The notes below the pieces were generated by a model, which worked only from the letters and a program-made list of their open reading frames with translations, made no database searches and was not told where the DNA came from. A DNA stretch of 64,000 bases. Source: an uncultured Pelagibacteraceae bacterium (GTDB lineage Bacteria > Pseudomonadota > Alphaproteobacteria > Pelagibacterales > Pelagibacteraceae). The DNA lies in assembly GCA_902551755.1 (NCBI GenBank), contig CACDEB010000001.1, forward strand, positions 121,803 through 185,802. Reading direction: 5' to 3'. Positions 1,224-10,673 of this stretch are shown piece by piece. Numbering within the stretch: the first letter of the stretch is position 1; every line of letters starts with the position of its first letter. The translations under genes were made by a program, and so were the position numbers.

Positions 1224-1305
1224 TGGCGGAGAGAGTGGGATTCGAACCCACGAAAGAGTTTCCCCTAAACACGCTTTCCAAGCGTGCGCCTTAAACCGCT
1301 CGGCC
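1224..1305 (-). pseudogene. 5'-truncated copy of tRNA-Ser(GGA), acting as the distal att direct repeat
   Basis: 82 bp identical to 2826..2907 except one mismatch (1298 G vs 2900 A). The 5' acceptor strand GGAGAGAT is replaced by unrelated sequence, so the acceptor stem cannot form. Confidence 0.92.
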
Positions 1306-1361
1306 TACTTATATTGATTATACTTACTTATTTTTTTTGAACTTTGAGATTTTAAAACTGG

Positions 1362-1381
1362 TGACGACCAACTGACGACCA
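1362..1381 (+). repeat. Tandem TGACGACCA x2 (11-bp period), left candidate integrase arm site
   Basis: TGACGACCA at 1362-1370 and 1373-1381. Confidence 0.8.
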
Positions 1382-1386
1382 CTAGA

Positions 1387-1725
1387 TTATGACAGTAAAA
1401 CTTTAAGTACTTCTAAAACAGTATAAATCCCCCCAAGGACAATTAATATTTGGGCAGCTATTCCCCATCCTGAATTCTGTTTTTTTCTTTGTTTTTCTTT
1501 AACGTAAATTGTAGCGCTTTTAAATCCACCGATTAATAAAAAAGCATTGGCACCAATTAGGAAAAGCCAATAGACTATAAAAAAAAATGCTGCGCCACTT
1601 GAAACGTTTCCAGTAACAAAAACAAAAGGAATTGATAACACAATAGGTATAAGTATACATCCGATCCAGTAGCTTTGAACTAACGGATACTTTCCTTCCC
1701 AATATTTTTTAAGTTCTTTTTCCAT
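1387..1725 (-). CDS. Hypothetical membrane protein (about 3 TM), element cargo
   Basis: 112-aa ORF with three hydrophobic stretches; fits in tandem with its neighbours. Confidence 0.75.
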   Translation of the reverse strand: MEKELKKYWEGKYPLVQSYWIGCILIPIVLSIPFVFVTGNVSSGAAFFFIVYWLFLIGANAFLLIGGFKSATIYVKEKQRKKQNSGWGIAAQILIVLGGIYTVLEVLKVLLS

Positions 1726-1736
1726 AATTAAATATA

Positions 1737-2153
1737 CTAATTTCCTAAAATTTTATCCAGAAATTTCTGGGGACCACTTTTTTTCTTAGGTTGAATTGGA
1801 GTGATTGTTCTGTAGACCTTAAAACTTAAATCAACATTCGCACACTTTTTTCCTGAAGGTAATTTTGCGGTAATAACCATACTTCTATCTTCATATGACC
1901 TTACTTGTTTATTAATTCTATAAATCCTATACGGCTCTTCAGTGCTTGTATTAGTTGATGCACAAGGTTTATCCCAAATATTAATCTTTTCAACTATTAT
2001 AGTTTTTGATGGATGTTTATTATATGCATTAATTGTAACAGTGTCATAAGTTCGATCAACTTTCCAGGAATAATCAAAGAAATCATAAACATTCTCAGCA
2101 TTTGCATGAGAAGATACAATGATAAATAATATGTAAATTAAAATTTTTTTCAC
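1737..2153 (-). CDS. Hypothetical exported protein, element cargo
   Basis: 138 aa; MKKILIYILFIIVSSHANA looks like a signal peptide with an AxA cleavage site; two Cys; basic amphipathic C-terminus. Confidence 0.75.
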   Translation of the reverse strand: MKKILIYILFIIVSSHANAENVYDFFDYSWKVDRTYDTVTINAYNKHPSKTIIVEKINIWDKPCASTNTSTEEPYRIYRINKQVRSYEDRSMVITAKLPSGKKCANVDLSFKVYRTITPIQPKKKSGPQKFLDKILGN

Positions 2154-2162
2154 AACTCACAT

Positions 2163-2756
2163 TTAATAGTTAATAGATTTTACCATTTTTCTTCCCATTG
2201 TTTGCATCGTATTACAATTTTGATTTGTATCGCATCCAATGGTCAACGTTGCTAATCCTGATTTAACTTGAAATTGATATTGTATTAAATAATTCTTAGC
2301 TCCATCATGAATTAAAAAAATTACTGGATTAAACTTTGGTGAAAACTCGCTTGTTTGTTTACACTCATACTGTTTAATATTTTTGTTAAAAAGTCTTGAA
2401 TACTCTTTTTGGTATATTTTACACATTTCCTTCAAACCTACTATAAAAATATCGTTTACATCTCCTTCTTGAATATTAATGTTAATTGCATTTTTTACTG
2501 GATCCAAATCACTAGGAAAAAAGTATTCAACATTCATATTTTTCTTAGAAACACCTGCCATAATATCGTTGAATGCATCCATATCAATATCTTTACCCTC
2601 ATAATCTTTCAAAAGCTCCTCTATATTCAAATTTTGAACTGCTGTAAGGCCATCTGGTACATCTATATAAAAACCAAATCTTGATCTAATTTCTTTTGAA
2701 AAAGAGCTAGTTATTAAGTTGCAAAATAGTAAAAGGATAATTAAAATTTTTTTCAT
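2163..2756 (-). CDS. Hypothetical exported protein, element cargo
   Basis: ORF track gives 2163..2771, but the likely start is ATG at 2756 (MKKILIILLLF..., signal-peptide-like); the upstream extension runs into the repeat pair. Confidence 0.75.
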   Translation of the reverse strand: MKKILIILLLFCNLITSSFSKEIRSRFGFYIDVPDGLTAVQNLNIEELLKDYEGKDIDMDAFNDIMAGVSKKNMNVEYFFPSDLDPVKNAININIQEGDVNDIFIVGLKEMCKIYQKEYSRLFNKNIKQYECKQTSEFSPKFNPVIFLIHDGAKNYLIQYQFQVKSGLATLTIGCDTNQNCNTMQTMGRKMVKSINY

Positions 2757-2761
2757 TGTAT

Positions 2762-2781
2762 TGACGCCCATATGACGACCA
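2762..2781 (+). repeat. Tandem TGACGCCCA / TGACGACCA (11-bp period), right candidate integrase arm site
   Basis: TGACGCCCA at 2762-2770 and TGACGACCA at 2773-2781; same orientation and spacing as the left pair. Confidence 0.8.
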
Positions 2782-2825
2782 AATTATCTTAACCTGATTT
2801 TGACAATTGTAAAAGAGTAAATAAA

Positions 2826-2915
2826 TGGCGGAGAGAGTGGGATTCGAACCCACGAAAGAGTTTCCCCTAAACACGCTTTCCAAGCGTGCGCCTTAAACCA
2901 CTCGGCCATCTCTCC
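2826..2915 (-). tRNA. tRNA-Ser(GGA)
   Basis: GGAGAGA/TCTCTCC acceptor stem, CACGC-TTGGAAA-GCGTG anticodon arm, long variable arm, GGTTCGAATCC T-arm, encoded CCA. Confidence 0.97.
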
Positions 2916-2919
2916 AAAG

Positions 2920-3780
2920 TTATTTAATTAATCTTTTTAAATTTTTTCTTTGCCTGTTTATAAACCTTTTAAAAATATTATATCTTTTATCTCTACGAGC
3001 ATGAATAGGAAAATTTTTCAAATGTTGCCATGTTCTCCTATTTTGCTTCTCTGCCCATTCACATTCTGCTGAGGAAATTGAAAAAATGTTTTTTTTTTTA
3101 CAAATCAAAGAAAATACACTTTGATCGTGTCGGTGTTCAATAAATTTTTCATGATTCATAGAAAAAGATTTACTATCATCTATTAAACTGTCTTTTTTTA
3201 ATACTCTTTCCCAATCATGAATTAAACTTAATGAAAAATTACTTTTCTTTAAAAAAATAATACCTGACATTATTTGTTCTGAATTAATTATTTTAGATCT
3301 TTCTTTTTGAATTAAATAGTCGAATAAATCCATTTTAGTATACTCACATTCTAAATATTTTTGAAATTTTATGTTTTTTAATAAAGTAAATTTTTTTGTA
3401 ACAGGTAATTTATATTGAAAAGTAAGAACTTTTTTTTGGTTACACAATATTATATACTCTTTCAACCTTTTTAAGCCACCTATATTTAAATGGCAGCCAA
3501 CATCTGAATATTGCACAATAGAATTTTTTGGGACCTTTTTCAAAAATTTTTTTATCACCTCAGCTTTCCAGCACCCATATCCGTAAAGTCTTTTACCTTT
3601 ATATTTAAGAAAGTTTTGAATTTGCTTCCTTTTAGATTTTGATAGATCATCTATTCCAAAAACTTGAATTTTTTTATAAATATTTATCTTTTTTGCTTGT
3701 TCTATAAATCTTTGTTTACTTCTTTTAAGATCAGGACTTGCAAATGAACAAAGATATATATTATTAATTTTTGTTTTCAT
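2920..3780 (-). CDS. Putative glycosyltransferase-like protein (HRHDQS motif)
   Basis: YSDVGC and EHRHDQS motifs; context among glycan genes. Start placed at ATG 3780 (MKTKINN); the 3912 start overlaps the upstream gene extensively. Confidence 0.6.
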   Translation of the reverse strand: MKTKINNIYLCSFASPDLKRSKQRFIEQAKKINIYKKIQVFGIDDLSKSKRKQIQNFLKYKGKRLYGYGCWKAEVIKKFLKKVPKNSIVQYSDVGCHLNIGGLKRLKEYIILCNQKKVLTFQYKLPVTKKFTLLKNIKFQKYLECEYTKMDLFDYLIQKERSKIINSEQIMSGIIFLKKSNFSLSLIHDWERVLKKDSLIDDSKSFSMNHEKFIEHRHDQSVFSLICKKKNIFSISSAECEWAEKQNRRTWQHLKNFPIHARRDKRYNIFKRFINRQRKNLKRLIK

Positions 3781-4558
3781 AAAAAATCCAGGGCCATTCG
3801 TTATAACTAGTATATTTTCTGAACCAAAATGGCATGTATCTTTCAGCAAGAAAAGCATATAATCTAGTTTGGTCATAACCTTTAAGATTTTTAAAACCAA
3901 AAACTTTTTCACATTTAAATAACCACTCGAACTGATCTTTAAAAAAATTGTTAAGAATTTTTTTCTTTGAAATAAACATTATGTGTGGATTGTATGTTGT
4001 ATTTTTTTCTACAAATTCTGTAAAATCAGCTTTGTCCTTCTCATTCATAACGCTTATTGCTTTTTCTAATACTCCATATCCATGGTGAAGATCGAACTGG
4101 ATTTTTATTGTTATACGACTATGATCGATAAGTAATATTGGCTCTTTAATAATATTTCTCCAGCCTCTTTTTAAGAGTTTTGATAATTTTGTTCCAAGAG
4201 GAATAGGTTCACAAAGCACTGCATTATACTTTTCCCACTCCTTTGGTACACACTTTAATATTATTTTTGTAATGTCATCAGTTTCTGTTGTGCTTCTCGA
4301 ATTCAACCAAAATCTTCTTTTTTGGCAAAATCCTATCCAATCATGATCATTGTAATGTTGTAATTGATTCTTCCAAAACCAGTAATGAAAAGTTAGTTCA
4401 GAATAATTTTCCTCTTTATGGAATATATTATCCATATTATCACATCTTAAATACTTATCTGAAAACTTTTTTTTACCTACTGCTGCTAATTTATAGTTAC
4501 TTTTCTCTAAAAAGGGTACGTCCTTATCAGTAACGCAATAAATATCTAAATTTGACAT
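3764..4558 (-). CDS. DUF4422-family putative glycosyltransferase
   Basis: DNIFHKEENYSELTFHYWFWKN, IGFCQKRRFW and AFLAER motifs typical of DUF4422 proteins. Confidence 0.75.
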   Translation of the reverse strand: MSNLDIYCVTDKDVPFLEKSNYKLAAVGKKKFSDKYLRCDNMDNIFHKEENYSELTFHYWFWKNQLQHYNDHDWIGFCQKRRFWLNSRSTTETDDITKIILKCVPKEWEKYNAVLCEPIPLGTKLSKLLKRGWRNIIKEPILLIDHSRITIKIQFDLHHGYGVLEKAISVMNEKDKADFTEFVEKNTTYNPHIMFISKKKILNNFFKDQFEWLFKCEKVFGFKNLKGYDQTRLYAFLAERYMPFWFRKYTSYNEWPWIFYENKN

Positions 4559-4591
4559 GAAATTAATCTTAATTAATTTATAAATTAAATC

Positions 4592-5668
4592 ATGGTTTTT
4601 TATAGAAAAAAATTACAATTAATCTATAAATTTTTTATTTCTCAATTATTTAAGGTTATCTATGGAAAAGTCATTTTTTCCAATAAAAACGATAAAGATG
4701 TTAAATTTATTGAGATAAGCAAAGATAATCAAAAGTACAAGTTTGCTGAAATAGACAATGGCAGAATATTTACAGATTATGTGGAGAACGTAGCAATAAT
4801 TAATAAAAATCAAATTTTAGATTATGTGTCCTATCAACAAGTTGAAGGTGAGTTAAAAGAGCCATTTTTAAATGTTGTAGTTAAAAAAGGGACTCCGAAA
4901 TTCAAAAAAAGATTCAAAGGAAAAGTGTTTTCGTTAATTCAGGGTGCTAGTGGAAATAATAATTACTTCCACTGGATGTTTGACGTTCTTCCAAAACTGA
5001 TAATATTAGAAAAAGTTTACAAACTGAATGAAATTGATTATTTTTACTCTCCACAAATAAAACCATGGCAACTATCTTCTCTTTCTATTTTTGATATTTC
5101 TGAAGAAAGATTAATAAATAGTAATCATTTTAGACACATTCATGCCGATAAAATACTAGCAGTTTCACACCCTTGGTATAATAAAGGCAGAATTCTGGAT
5201 GAAGCCAAAACATTACCAACTTGGATAATAAATGAAATAGGATTAAAATTTGAAAAGTATGGAAAAAAATTCGAATGTAACGATAAAATTTTTATTGATA
5301 GAAGAGAGTCACACTTTAATCATTGTCAAATTATAAATGATGAGGAAATAAAGACTCATTTAAAAAAAAAAGGTTTTACGATATACAGGGTTGGTGAACT
5401 AAATTTTTTTGAGCAAATATACCTTTTTCAAAATGCTAAGATAATTATTGGTGCTCATGGGGCAGCGTTTGCAAACTTAATTTTTTGTAAACCAAATACT
5501 AAGGTTTTGGATATAATTCCAGAAAATCATCCCAATTCAGTTGACGAGACAATTGCAAAGTTTAAAAATTTAGATTTTAAATTTGTAAAAACCAAAGAAT
5601 TATCAATTGAAAAAAAAACTAATGGGGATATATTTTTACCAATAAAAGTAATTGACAGTTTTTTGTGA
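4592..5668 (+). CDS. Glycosyltransferase family 61 (DUF563) protein
   Basis: NYFHWMFDVLP, FIDR and QIYLFQNAKIIIGAHGAAFANLIF motifs. Confidence 0.85.
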   Translation: MVFYRKKLQLIYKFFISQLFKVIYGKVIFSNKNDKDVKFIEISKDNQKYKFAEIDNGRIFTDYVENVAIINKNQILDYVSYQQVEGELKEPFLNVVVKKGTPKFKKRFKGKVFSLIQGASGNNNYFHWMFDVLPKLIILEKVYKLNEIDYFYSPQIKPWQLSSLSIFDISEERLINSNHFRHIHADKILAVSHPWYNKGRILDEAKTLPTWIINEIGLKFEKYGKKFECNDKIFIDRRESHFNHCQIINDEEIKTHLKKKGFTIYRVGELNFFEQIYLFQNAKIIIGAHGAAFANLIFCKPNTKVLDIIPENHPNSVDETIAKFKNLDFKFVKTKELSIEKKTNGDIFLPIKVIDSFL

Positions 5669-6478
5669 CTAATCAATCCACTCTTTATAATTAGAAAGAT
5701 TATCTATAAGGTATTTGGGAAAAGAATTATCAATAGAAATTTTTTTATAATTATGATTTCTTCCAATAATATCTTTTTTTTCAGAAATCATCTTATTAAT
5801 TGAATCTAAAGATAGATATTTTTCGTCAATTTTTTCATTAAAATTTATTGGATCATTTGTTTCACACAAGTTTTTGTATTTATATAACAATTGCTCAGGT
5901 TTTTTTAAATTGCAAAAGTGCCAACCACCTTTATCAATTATATTATTTAATCTTAATTTATCTAATCTCCAAAAAGGTCTTCTTTTAAATTTAAGGTCCC
6001 TCAACCACTGAGGAGATTTTAAATATCTTTTTACACAAATTCTACTACCAAACCAAAATGGTTCATTTTCACTTTGAAGATTAAACTTATAATAAAAATG
6101 ATTTTGTTTAAAAACAGCATATCTCATTTTTTTACTAAATTTTTTAAATTGATTAGGATTTGGTATTTCATCCAAGTCTGAGACAATAATAAAATCATCA
6201 TCTTTACACTTTTCTAAACCTCTCATAATAGAATTTCTCTGGAAGTTCTCTCTTAAATAAGGATTAACACCGCCTGGCATATCTGTAACTGGTACGTAAA
6301 TAATTTTATCCTTAAATTTACTAAAATTATTAATATCAAATTTTAGATTTTTTGAATTATTTTGCCATGTTTTATTACCTTCTACGATAACAAAATAATC
6401 AACATGATTATCTAAAATATTTAATCTTAAATCTAATAATAAGTCTTCGTCCCAATAGGAAAAACAATCATAAATCAT
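5669..6478 (-). CDS. GT17-like beta-1,4-N-acetylglucosaminyltransferase family protein
   Basis: MIYDCFSYWDE, VDYFVIVE, RENFQRN, IIVSDLDEIP and GGWHF motifs. Confidence 0.8.
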   Translation of the reverse strand: MIYDCFSYWDEDLLLDLRLNILDNHVDYFVIVEGNKTWQNNSKNLKFDINNFSKFKDKIIYVPVTDMPGGVNPYLRENFQRNSIMRGLEKCKDDDFIIVSDLDEIPNPNQFKKFSKKMRYAVFKQNHFYYKFNLQSENEPFWFGSRICVKRYLKSPQWLRDLKFKRRPFWRLDKLRLNNIIDKGGWHFCNLKKPEQLLYKYKNLCETNDPINFNEKIDEKYLSLDSINKMISEKKDIIGRNHNYKKISIDNSFPKYLIDNLSNYKEWID

Positions 6479-6479
6479 T

Positions 6480-8288
6480 TTATTTTTCTTTATTAATTTT
6501 CAATACTCCTATGAAAGCTTCCTGTGGTATTTCTACTCTACCAAACTGTTTAGATCTTGCTTTACCTTTCTTTTGTTTATCCAAAAGCTTTCTTTTTCTA
6601 TCTCTTGCACCACCACCATGTATTTTCGTAAGAACATCTTTTTTAAAGCCTTTAATTGTTTCTCTAGCTATAATTTTACCCCCAATTGCTGCCTGGACAG
6701 GAATCATAAAGTTATGGCGAGGTATCAAGTCTTTTAATTTTTCACAGACTTCTCGACCAATAGTTTGAGCAAAGTCTTTATGTACCATCATTGCAAGAGC
6801 ATCAACCGGTTCAGAATTAACTAATATTCCCAATTTAACTAAATCGCCTTCTTTATGACCCATTATTTCGTAGTCAAAACTTGCATATCCACTTGTCATT
6901 GATTTAAGCCTATCGTTGAAATCAAAAACAACCTCATTTAGAGGGATCTCATAATTTAATACAGCCCTACTTCCTGAATAATTTAAATTTTTCTGTATAC
7001 CTCTTTTATTTTGACAGAGTTTCATAATAGATCCTAAATATTGGTCAGGAGTAATTATTGTAGCTTTAATCCATGGCTCTTCTATAAATTTGATTAAAGT
7101 TGGATCAGGTAAATTTGAGGGATTTTGCAAGTCTAGGATATTCCCGTTATTTAAATGGACTTTGTAAACAACTCCTGGGGTAGTAGTAAGCAAATTAATA
7201 TCAAATTCTCTTTCAAGTCTCTCAGTTATTATTTCAAGATGAAGTAAACCTAAAAAACCACAACGAAATCCAAGCCCCAGTGCTGAAGAGGACTCCGCTT
7301 CGTAAGAAAAGCTCGAGTCGTTTAACTGTAATTTAGCCAAACCATCTTTTAATTTTTGATACTCTGAACTATCAACTGGAAATAAGCCACAAAAAACCAC
7401 TGGTTTACTTGGTTTGAAACCAGGTAAAGCTTTTTTAAGAGGACTTTGAGCTTCACAAATAGTATCGCCGACTTTTGTATCAGATAAATTTTTTATTCCT
7501 GTAATAATAAATCCTATTTCACCAGATTTAAGTTCTTCAATGTCTTTGGCCTTTGGTGTAAATACACCTACTTTTTCTACTATATATTCTTGATCTGTAG
7601 ACATCATCTTTATTTTCATGTTTTTTTTCAATGTTCCATCTATCACCCTGACTAAAATAATAACTCCTAAGTAAGAGTCATACCAACTGTCAACAAGCAA
7701 GCATTTTAATTGTTCTTTAGTCTCACCTTTTGGTGGTGGTAGTGATGAGACAATCGACTCTAAAATATCTTCTATACCTTCGCCTGTTTTTCCTGAGCAA
7801 GGCACAGCATTAGATGTATCTATACCAATAACATCTTCTATTTGTTTTTTTGTTCTATCTAAATCAGAGGCTGGTAGATCAATTTTATTTAATACAGGTA
7901 TTATTTCATGATTTATATCTAACGCCTGGTAAACATTGGCAAGTGTTTGGGCTTCAACACCTTGAGTGCTGTCTACAATTAATATAGATCCTTCACAGGC
8001 ATAAAGTGATCGACTAACCTCATAACTAAAGTCTACATGACCTGGTGTATCAATAATATTTAGAATGTATTCTTTGCCATCTTTTGCTTTGTAATTCAGC
8101 TTTACTGTTTGTGCCTTAATTGTAATTCCTCGCTCTCTTTCGATATCCATGGAGTCTAATACTTGATCCTTCATTTCTCTTTCTGTCAAACCTCCACACT
8201 TATGTATTATTCTATCCGCAATTGTTGATTTACCGTGATCGATATGAGCGATGATGGCAAAATTTCTTATGTTATTAAGATTAGACAT
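6480..8288 (-). CDS. lepA: Elongation factor 4
   Basis: [24 protein letters not shown] and C-terminal [13 protein letters not shown]. Confidence 0.99.
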
Positions 8289-10673
8289 TTATGATCTTAA
8301 TTTTGCGCCAGTTTTCTCTTCGACAGTGCTGACTATCTTTTTTGATATATTTGTCAAATCGTTTTCGTCTAAAGTTTTGTGGTCAGATTGTATTGTCACT
8401 TTTAAAGCAATAGATTTTTTGTCAGATGGAATATTTTCCCCTTCATAAACATCAAAAATTTTTATTTGTTTGATTAAATTTTTATCTATATTCTGGATAA
8501 CTTCTGTTAAATCTTGAGCTCTTGTATCTTTATTGACTAAAAAAGCAAAATCCCTATCTGACTTCTGATAATCCGAAAAAGTTAGACTTTCTTTAGTTTT
8601 TTTATTTTTTGCTTTATATTCAACTAAGTTTTCTAAAAAGATTTCAAATCCAAAAGTATTTGAAATTATCTTTGGGTGCAAGGCACCAAAATATCCAAGA
8701 ACAAGATTTCCGTCTTTTGAGACTATAGATCCTGAAATACCTGGGTGATAATAAGAAGGTGTATTTTCCTCAACCTTAAAATCTTCTTTTCTTATCTCAA
8801 GTTCTGTTAATGATTGAACTAAATCTTTTTTAATATGAAAAACATCTACTAAATCATTTTTCTCTAAATTACTATCTTCATCTATAGATTGTTTTTTAAT
8901 CCCACAAACAACAGTGATTTGTTGACCAGGTTTTTTTCCTGTAAAAGCTGGACCAATTTCAAAAAGGGCTTGATCACCAAATCCTCTGTTTAGGTTTTTT
9001 TCTAAATAGAAAATGAGATTTGGATACAAAGAATTTCTTAATACATTTAAATCTGAACTTATTGGATTTACAATCTTTACACTTTCACACTTTTCTTTGA
9101 ATTTGTTATTAATTTTTTCGTCAGTAAAAGACCATGTTATTGTTTCAAGATATCCTTTTGAGGCTACAGATCTTTGAGCTAAATGAAAATGTTTCTGAAA
9201 GTAATTAAGTGTTGGTTTAGTTCGTTTTTTATCAGGTTCAATGGACTTTATTTTTTCAAATCCAATAATTCTAATTACTTCCTCTACTAGATCAATCTCT
9301 CCAAAAATATCCGGTCTCCAACTTGGAACCTTAACATTGAGAAATTTACCTTTGGTTTTAACAGTGAAGCCTAAGTTTGATAAGATCTTTTTTATCTCAT
9401 TAGTGTTTATGCTGGTTCCAACTGTCTTTGATACCATTTTGGGGTCAAATTTTATCTCAAGATTTTTGAATTTTTTTGTCTGCTTTACATCAAATTTAGA
9501 AACTTCCCCTCCACAAATTTCTAAAATTAGTTCAACGGCTGAGTCCAACCCAACAGTTACAGATTGAGGATCTACTCCTCTTTCAAAACGGAACTTTGCA
9601 TCACTATTCAAATCTAATTTTTTAGCAGTTTTTCTTGTAGTTGAAGGATCAAAATATGCTGACTCTAATAGTATATTTTTTGTGTGTATTTCTGTGCCTG
9701 ACCTTTCACCTCCGATTATTCCACCTAAACCAAGTACACCTTCATCATCTGATATCACACACATATCTTTATCAAGCGTATAATTTTTATTATCTAGGGC
9801 TTTAAAACTCTCTCCTTTTTTTGAATTTCTAACGGTAATTTTATTCTTTATCTTGTCTAAATCGTATGCATGGAGGGGTCGGTTCAAATCAAACATTACA
9901 TAATTTGTTATGTCAACAACAGCAGAAATAGGCCTTAAGCCAAGTGCTAAAATTCTATTTTTTAACCATCCTGGACTTTCAGTATTTTTAATATTTTTAA
10001 TGATACAGCTTCCAAAAATTGAACATGCCTGATTTTTATTTTTTTCAATCTTTATCTTTAAATTATGTTTAATGTTCTTTTTAACTTTACTCTTTCTTGG
10101 TTCTTTTAATTTTCCAAAGTTAGAGGCTGACAAATCTCTTGCGATACCTCTCACACCTAGGCAGTCTGGTCTATTAGGGGTAATTGATAATTCTATTACA
10201 TTTTTTCCTTTTTTTTCACCGAAGAATGATTTTCCAATTTTTGTTTTATATTTATCATTTAGATCTATTATTCCTTCGCTCTCATTAGAAAGTTTTAATT
10301 CTGACTCAGAACAAAGCATTCCATAAGAGGTTTCTCCTCTGATCTTTGATATCTCTAATTTCATGCCATTTTTTGGAATTACTGAACCTGGCGGTGCGTA
10401 GATTGTCAAAAGTCCATCTCTTGCATTAGGAGCACCACACACAACTTTAAGTGTATCTTTTTTTCCTATATCCACATCACATAATTTAAGCCGGTCAGCA
10501 TTAGGATGTTTGTTTGCTTTTATTATTTTCGCTACAATGAAGTCGCTTAATTCATTTTTGACTGGCTCTACCTTTTCTACTTCTAGGCCAATACTATTTA
10601 ATTTCTGGATAATTTGTGACTCACTTTTATTTGTTTTTAAATGAACATCAAGCCAGTCTTTTGTAAATTTCAT
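8289..10673 (-). CDS. pheT: Phenylalanine--tRNA ligase beta subunit
   Basis: [29 protein letters not shown] and a C-terminal FDX-ACB domain. Confidence 0.99.

Follow-up and report, generated by a model that had tools for sequence, protein, structure and literature searches.

A putative cargo-only cassette flanked by attachment sites at tRNA-Ser(GGA) of a SAR11 genome

We analysed a 64,000-nucleotide stretch of DNA (the window; positions 121803-185802 of contig C1) from a SAR11 (Pelagibacterales) genome of 1.07 Mb in 12 contigs. Segment 1224-2915 of the window holds three genes between an intact tRNA-Ser(GGA) gene and a displaced copy of the 3′ part of that gene. In our judgement this segment is probably a cargo-only integrative cassette flanked by attachment (att) sites, comparable to the cis-mobilizable elements (CIMEs) described elsewhere and part of a SAR11-wide family of elements that integrate into tRNA genes. 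It looks like a small dependent gene-shuttle cassette, because both integration scars and both repeat sets are present, no recombinase is, and different genes lie between the same ends in SAR11 lineages other than this one. The anatomy and the relatives give good support to integration by a tyrosine integrase. We infer present-day mobilisation in trans as plausible and place it no higher, because no integrase-bearing phage, viral contig or island was found to have these ends.

Anatomy of the cassette and its site

The features of the segment, from the intact tRNA gene to the distal end, are as follows.

2826..2915, minus strand: intact tRNA-Ser(GGA) (ARAGORN), the proximal att site, at which the gene is reconstituted; its CCA 3′ end is at 2826
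2782..2825, minus strand: proximal (P′) arm spacer, carrying an inward promoter-like site (consensus scan)
2762..2781, minus strand: proximal tandem pair, TGGTCGTCA-TA-TGGGCGTCA in the tRNA sense with an 11-bp period; candidate arm-type sites and operator
2163..2756, minus strand: cargo gene 1, open reading frame (ORF) ORF197, a signal-peptide protein of 197 aa counted from the second ATG
1737..2153, minus strand: cargo gene 2, ORF138, a signal-peptide protein of 138 aa
1387..1725, minus strand: cargo gene 3, ORF112, a small hydrophobic protein of 112 aa
1362..1381, minus strand: distal tandem pair, TGGTCGTCA-GT-TGGTCGTCA in the tRNA sense and oriented like the proximal pair
1306..1361, minus strand: spacer of the distal (P) arm, running from the tandem pair to the tRNA fragment and conserved in loci L062, L075, L221 and L222
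1224..1305, minus strand: displaced 3′ tRNA-Ser fragment (tRNA positions 9-90, by repeat comparison), the distal att site

The fragment lies in direct orientation to the intact gene, lacks only its 5′ 8 nt and matches it at 81 of 82 positions, with a start-to-start spacing of 1602 bp. The sole mismatch is at tRNA position 16, where the fragment has C and the full gene T. The window tRNA-Ser(GGA) is identical or nearly so to those of same-genus genomes, and C16 is the native base in the tRNAs of three genomes (G034, G017 and G297); a crossover on the 3′ side of position 16 could account for the mismatch. Read from the sequence, the geometry is that expected of integration into the 3′ part of a tRNA gene, with the gene whole on the promoter side and its old 3′ part downstream of the insert.

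Just inside each end lies a tandem pair of 9-mers with a 2-nt spacer and an 11-bp period, which on the plus strand reads TGACGCCCA-TA-TGACGACCA at 2762-2781 and TGACGACCA-AC-TGACGACCA at 1362-1381. With at most one mismatch the 9-mer matches 10 times in the window, against 3.9 expected, and none of 100 shuffles reached 10. A gap of 5 nt separates the proximal pair from the ATG of the first gene, and the spacer beyond the pair contains a promoter-like TTTACA-16-TAAGAT (2813→2786; consensus scan) aimed into the cassette. Between the repeats are three co-oriented minus-strand ORFs (112, 138 and 197 aa), with no recombinase and no match to PF00589.

A preliminary description of this DNA, drawn from the letters alone, had already reported the intact tRNA with an 82-nt copy short of its 5′ 8 nt, the matching pairs inside the ends, and the want of a recombinase between the repeats. 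ARAGORN, the repeat counts, the domain search and the coordinates bear out all of these. Its likening of the segment to a miniature inverted-repeat transposable element (MITE) does not hold: no terminal inverted repeats around the cassette came up in the repeat scan, and a MITE is rejected because the ends are direct tRNA repeats of 82 nt, not inverted repeats with target-site duplications.

In relatives the backbone order is a GyrB/ParE-like gene, tRNA-Ser and lepA, which represents the ancestral state. Empty sites were found in 6 of 15 same-genus loci (G029, G033, G011, G012, G013 and G008), where the gap from the tRNA 3′ end to the GyrB/ParE-like gene measures 107-171 nt. Two near-identical 82-nt copies in direct orientation might also come from a local duplication of the tRNA region involving no mobile element. 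The DNA between the copies is unique, however, and the copy stops at tRNA position 9; the matching arm pairs, the empty sites and the same layout in integrase-bearing elements (below) all point to integration, so that duplication is effectively refuted and we leave it almost no probability.

In the window the 5′ side of the tRNA is occupied by four glycosyltransferase-type genes (2920-6478), and on the 3′ side the cassette is followed by a methyltransferase gene (496-1206) and a glycosyltransferase gene. Genes of these two kinds vary among relatives on both sides of tRNA-Ser (2920-6478, and from beyond the window's start to 1206), making the interval from lepA to the GyrB/ParE-like gene a small two-sided variable region. 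No older tRNA or att remnants were found between the distal fragment and the GyrB/ParE-like gene. At one related locus (L028, genome G017, 7775-9812) a 2-kb insert 3′ of tRNA-Ser contains a methyltransferase-like ORF and a 331-aa ORF, both named by eye only, and ends in a degenerate tRNA fragment of ~60 nt (~75% identical); it appears to be an older insertion of a different type.

Cassettes with the same ends, and integrase-bearing elements of the same layout

The preliminary description had suggested looking for different cargo between the same ends, and this was found. The proximal arm TGGTCGYCATATGGGCGTCAA, together with the promoter-like site and an ATG at fixed distance, precedes at least eight different first cargo genes in two genera. 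We aligned the proximal arms of 12 cassettes from these two genera. In 11 of the 12 the 20-mer spanning the pair shows no more than a 1-nt change, the −35 and −10 columns are conserved over all of them (the other genus reads TTGCAC-16-TAAAAT), and the start, ATGAAAAAA, keeps a fixed distance from the 20-mer; beyond it the sequences diverge into the different first genes. The arm type of the window occurs in 5 of 401 SAR11 genomes, in 3 GTDB species genomes and in 6 JGI metagenome contigs.

The second genus (g8; genomes G181 and G354 and the single-amplified genome AG-917-N08) has the same 20-mer and a conserved distal arm around unrelated cargo, namely one 238-aa secreted protein in one case, proteins of 145, 104 and 78 aa in another, and a 372-aa lipoprotein in a third. 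Its tRNA fragment is 74 nt long and 100% identical to the tRNA of g8 itself, and five metagenome contigs of this genus also have the proximal arm beside cargo unlike that of the window.

A sister family has analogous cassettes. In six of its genomes tRNA-Ser is followed 0.63-1.9 kb downstream by a 58-60-nt fragment that is mostly 100% identical. Most of these six cassettes have matched pairs of their own and all lack an integrase. Their type of conserved distal arm was found in 11 of 60 genomes of the family, twice each in G106 and G151. The six loci (L033-L038) belong respectively to G042, G037, G038, G055, G053 and G051. The first five have in common a distal arm of ~80-100 nt (..AAATTATCCTCTAATCT..) upstream of the 58-nt fragment and differ in cargo and, where these are present, in proximal pairs, while the distal arm of G051 is different. 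Taken together, these sequences indicate that integrase-less tRNA-Ser(GGA) cassettes are recurrent in SAR11.

Elements with the same layout and an integrase are found at other tRNA genes. Most SAR11 genomes have Xer-type recombinases only, and some complete genomes have extra integrases of ~340 aa. We sought such extra integrases in 200 SAR11 genomes and fetched the 16 best-scoring; for nearly all of them a tRNA-Arg(TCT), Met, Leu or Lys is at most a few hundred bases away, and none of these 16 neighbours a tRNA-Ser. Among the integrase elements of complete genomes (loci L046-L060), those for which both ends were found are 4-10 kb long, and those scanned against Pfam encode the integrase with an AAA_25 primase/helicase-like or a T5orf172 protein; the AAA_25 genes give some of them a satellite- or tycheposon-like character. 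They run from the tRNA through a short spacer, a first tandem pair and the genes to a second tandem pair and a tRNA fragment. In most, the first pair consists of 8-9-mers with a 10-12-bp period and sits 25-70 nt past the CCA, immediately ahead of the integrase start (for example TGACGACC-TGA-TGACGAAA and TGACGTCCA-TA-TGACGTCCA; the tRNA-Arg(TCT) elements at L046 and L050 have arms reading TGACGACC), and inside the distal end a related pair is followed by a 26-65-nt 3′ tRNA fragment.

The two arms of an element covary. Among 14 elements with both ends known, the proximal and distal arms of the same element share a mean of 4.8 GC-containing 7-mers, against 1.2 shared with the distal arms of other elements, and none of 20,000 permutations reached the observed sum. 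Because of this sharing within elements and the common layout in integrase-bearing elements, the pairs of the window conform to a pattern of element-specific arm sites that is established in this group, and we infer that the 9-mers are arm-type binding sites for the N-terminal domain of an integrase. An orphan pair, AGGTCGTCATCTGGTCGTCA, lies 57 nt after tRNA-Met at another locus (L202, G048:C7) with no integrase and no distal fragment; it is probably an arm of this motif class left behind at a different tRNA.

One contig (L206:77-1600) joins cargo from two types of cassette, with a hybrid 9-mer pair, TGGACTCCGCATGGGCGTCAACAGATG, between them. This junction, and the fact that each cassette starts with a pair at fixed distance from its ATG, could suggest an integron-like site at which the tandem pairs themselves are the crossover points and pair-headed gene units are gained and lost beside tRNA-Ser. 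We think this very unlikely: the internal genes of the window cassette have no pair, the pairs of the autonomous relatives flank the tRNA-derived core rather than replace it, and the L206 junction would equally be expected if two tandem cassettes had lost the DNA between their directly repeated pairs. A true integron gene cassette is likewise rejected, as no IntI-type gene is nearby and the ends are derived from tRNA.

Decay, movement between lineages and the search for an integrase

The closer relatives present a series of shortened and altered alleles. Two Tara/ENA loci (L062 and L063) carry a one-gene allele with a repeat spacing of 890 bp, produced by a 707-bp deletion at a TATTAA microhomology. 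Locus L075 has a three-gene allele in which the middle gene is replaced and the fragment is cut to positions 9-49. Two-gene alleles at L207 and L220 arose via recombination between similar signal-peptide starts, and L220 has also lost the distal arm, the fragment and two downstream genes. Genome G297 retains the P′ arm and a gene stub only, and G034 only a spacer scar.

The identity of the cassette to that of the window is uncoupled from the identity of the flanking backbone:

L062: cassette 95.8%, flanks 85-86% (lepA side and GyrB/ParE-like gene)
L220: cassette 98.6%, flank 86.2%
L074: cassette 92.7%, flank 96.5%

Because of this uncoupling and of three different distal flanks found for the cassette, it must have moved between lineages; site-specific and homologous recombination are both compatible with the data.

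The genome of the window is itself not free of non-Xer recombinases. It has two PF00589 matches, both on contig C2, one to an Xer-like protein and the other to a 545-aa tyrosine integrase. The latter belongs to a 7.7-kb element (C2:104453-112314) inserted in the 5′ half of tRNA-Leu(TAA), bounded by the full tRNA gene (104453-104538) and an identical 39-nt repeat (112276-112314), and encoding in addition a 759-aa primase/helicase-like protein and a small Xis-like protein.

The preliminary description had looked to phage and virome contigs for these ends near an integrase, and none was found in INPHARED or IMG/VR. Querying INPHARED by blastn with the fragment and distal arm returned generic tRNA-Ser homology only, which leaves a phage origin unsupported. 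Exact scans of IMG/VR with the arm pairs and SAR11-specific tRNA-Ser segments gave nothing, and a shorter T-arm pattern matched only unrelated, mostly high-GC contigs.

One contig (L210:1-4342) does place an integrase near such an arm. It has a 30-nt tRNA-Ser 3′ core and the arm TGGTCGTCATATGGGCGTCAA, the same as that of the cassette, then a trypsin-like gene and, ~0.6 kb downstream of it, a gene for a 495-aa integrase, which is preceded by a partial tRNA-Thr 5′ half and a pair of CTGTAGCCAA x2. The family of this integrase inserts at the 5′ half of tRNA-Thr(TGT), and it is rejected as the cognate enzyme because of that target and its own pair (CTGTAGCCAA x2). Since only a partial, attP-like tRNA-Thr precedes the integrase, a piece of the cassette may here be riding on an autonomous tRNA-Thr element, in this one contig.

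Several results weigh against a mobile cassette. No integrase-bearing element with these arms or with the tRNA-Ser core turned up in the 401 SAR11 genomes, INPHARED, IMG/VR, the GTDB species genomes or the JGI metagenome contigs, and the resident 545-aa integrase is rejected as the cognate enzyme, having other arm motifs and tRNA-Leu(TAA) as its target. The empty-site alleles envisaged in the preliminary description exist in the same genus, as noted above, and neither such an allele nor an excised circle was seen in the assembled sequences of the closest relatives, all of which carry the cassette at the same site. Differences between alleles within the genus appear to be short-homology deletions and not exchanges of cargo, the distal att site (attR) is decaying in some lineages, and decayed copies are present in several relatives (G297, L075, L220, G034 and G035); much of the history of the cassette is therefore vertical descent plus deletion. 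Conservation of the proximal pair could reflect a promoter or leader function rather than integrase binding, and the high homologous recombination of SAR11 could alone yield the mosaic of identities.

Our chief rival explanation is built on part of this evidence. An autonomous tRNA-Ser element would have integrated once in the ancestor of the sub-clade and lost its integrase and replication genes; as a dead relic it would now never excise, and would vary solely by deletion and general homologous recombination. The failure to find the cognate integrase anywhere searched, the series of decaying copies and the microhomology deletions within the genus all favour such a relic, and the tycheposon model already expects leftovers of this kind beside tRNA genes. 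Yet the integrase would have to have been lost independently and precisely, with both arms and the arm-to-ATG junction kept, in at least eight cargo variants of two genera and in the cassettes of the sister family. The 20-nt pair stays constant within a diverging spacer, the distribution is patchy (the 5 of 401 and 11 of 60 genomes given above), and in similarity the cassette exceeds the flanking core genes by 10-12 percentage points. On balance we regard the relic as possible and somewhat unlikely, and we prefer the reading as a dependent integrative cassette. The proposal of the preliminary description that a non-autonomous element is mobilised in trans agrees with the anatomy, the empty sites, the variety of cargo and the shared layout; the part that called for an integrase-bearing carrier of these ends found no support.

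Cargo, proposed mechanism and known systems

The cargo of the window cassette is best described as envelope proteins, two with signal peptides and one small and probably membrane-bound. None of the three matched Pfam, PHROG or PADLOC. The preliminary description was right that the genes are co-oriented and wrong to call them ORFans, since 31 protein clusters are homologous to ORF197 and Tara/ENA contigs contain all three genes in identical or near-identical form. One relative of ORF197, 66% identical, occupies a core locus flanked by a heparinase II/III-like gene and purH. In structure prediction ORF197 gave a model of pLDDT 70 (predicted local distance difference test) with a template-modelling (TM) score of 0.58 to CyanoP 2lnj, one of five models being confident; with low to moderate confidence its fold resembles PsbP/DcrB-type periplasmic proteins. 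ORF112, for which an identical protein occurs in six metagenome contigs, is probably a multi-pass membrane protein, as judged by eye. ORF138 (1737-2153) and its 131-aa allele at L075:1575-1970 have a signal peptide and a C-terminal KKSGxQKFLDKILGN in common around unrelated central parts, as though the core of this small secreted protein had been swapped or were evolving fast. The cargo of the other cassettes consists likewise of signal-peptide proteins and small membrane proteins, with one protease.

In the mechanism that we propose for this small-element family, tyrosine integrases would insert the elements into the 3′ part of tRNA genes. Recombination of a circular or donor form, its attP containing an 82-nt tRNA-Ser-like segment, with the chromosomal tRNA-Ser(GGA) would give exactly the structure observed, rebuilding the tRNA proximally and displacing its old 3′ part by 1602 bp. 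The proximal arm would provide an inward promoter, with the pair as operator just before the first ATG, and the gene placed behind it is the integrase in autonomous relatives and a secreted protein in the window cassette. Such a cassette would be immobile alone and would be excised or inserted only when a cognate integrase acts in trans, or else be carried in cis by a neighbouring element; it could spread between lineages also by homologous recombination through its conserved ends, and if unused it would decay by microhomology deletions. Beyond this we tentatively raise, as an unlikely case, that tRNA-Ser(GGA) is the seat of a cassette-exchange system, with constant ends (a promoter and operator-like 9-mer pair, a tRNA-derived core and a distal pair) around interchangeable sets of secreted and membrane proteins, integrases that act on these ends without being resident in the cassette, and cassettes that sometimes ride on autonomous satellite-like elements, as contig L210 may illustrate. 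If true, a genome considered nearly devoid of mobile DNA would have an integron-like means of diversifying its cell surface.

No bacterial group in the ocean is more abundant than SAR11, and the way in which it acquires strain-specific genes is under debate. For the main variable region of SAR11, tRNA-anchored phage insertion was proposed in a recent genus-wide study, with no evidence at the level of att sites. To this our analysis adds base-level anatomy for one site, comprising attL and attR, covarying candidate arms and a promoter-bearing arm, as well as at least eight cargo sets between the same ends in two genera and autonomous relatives at other tRNAs. Because the cargo consists of secreted and membrane proteins, the system may feed diversity of the cell envelope, which is relevant to phage pressure.

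Several known systems bear comparison. Temperate HTVC019P-type pelagiphages also use tyrosine integrases that target SAR11 tRNA genes, but the targets known for them are tRNA-Cys, Leu and Arg, and the cores measure 11-46 bp (bioRxiv 10.1101/410191). The additive flexible islands at tRNA-Lys of 'Ca. Methylopumilus' (PMC10872708) are gene blocks beside a tRNA delimited by direct repeats of its 3′ end, as here; the repeat there is 20 nt as against 82 nt, and the cassette has in addition element-specific arm pairs on both sides and arms that recur with other cargo.

The tycheposons of Prochlorococcus and their remnants (bioRxiv 10.1101/2020.12.28.424599) are alike in targeting tRNA genes, in having partial-tRNA flanks and in leaving cargo beside the tRNA. 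By gene content and size, the autonomous SAR11 relatives, with a tyrosine recombinase and a primase/helicase-like gene in 4-10 kb, can be likened to them in life-style. The cassette itself, which the preliminary description had called tycheposon-like, has neither the hallmark recombinase nor the replication genes and is rejected as a tycheposon proper, and whereas tycheposon remnants lack clear boundaries it has both (bioRxiv 10.1101/2020.12.28.424599).

The closest parallel is with CIMEs, defined as keeping attL and attR while lacking recombination genes (PMC5704250), as known from streptococcal systems of integrative conjugative elements (ICEs) and integrative mobilizable elements (IMEs). 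Like these, the cassette, placed at the 3′ end of a tRNA gene, keeps both att sites and is free of genes for integration or transfer, and its relatives show tandem accretion (the two copies in G106 and G151, and the fused tandem of L206). It differs in its host, a streamlined marine alphaproteobacterium with no conjugative partner known, in arms that hold a promoter-like site placed to drive the cargo, and in the many cargo variants between the same ends, which suggest more than passive decay.

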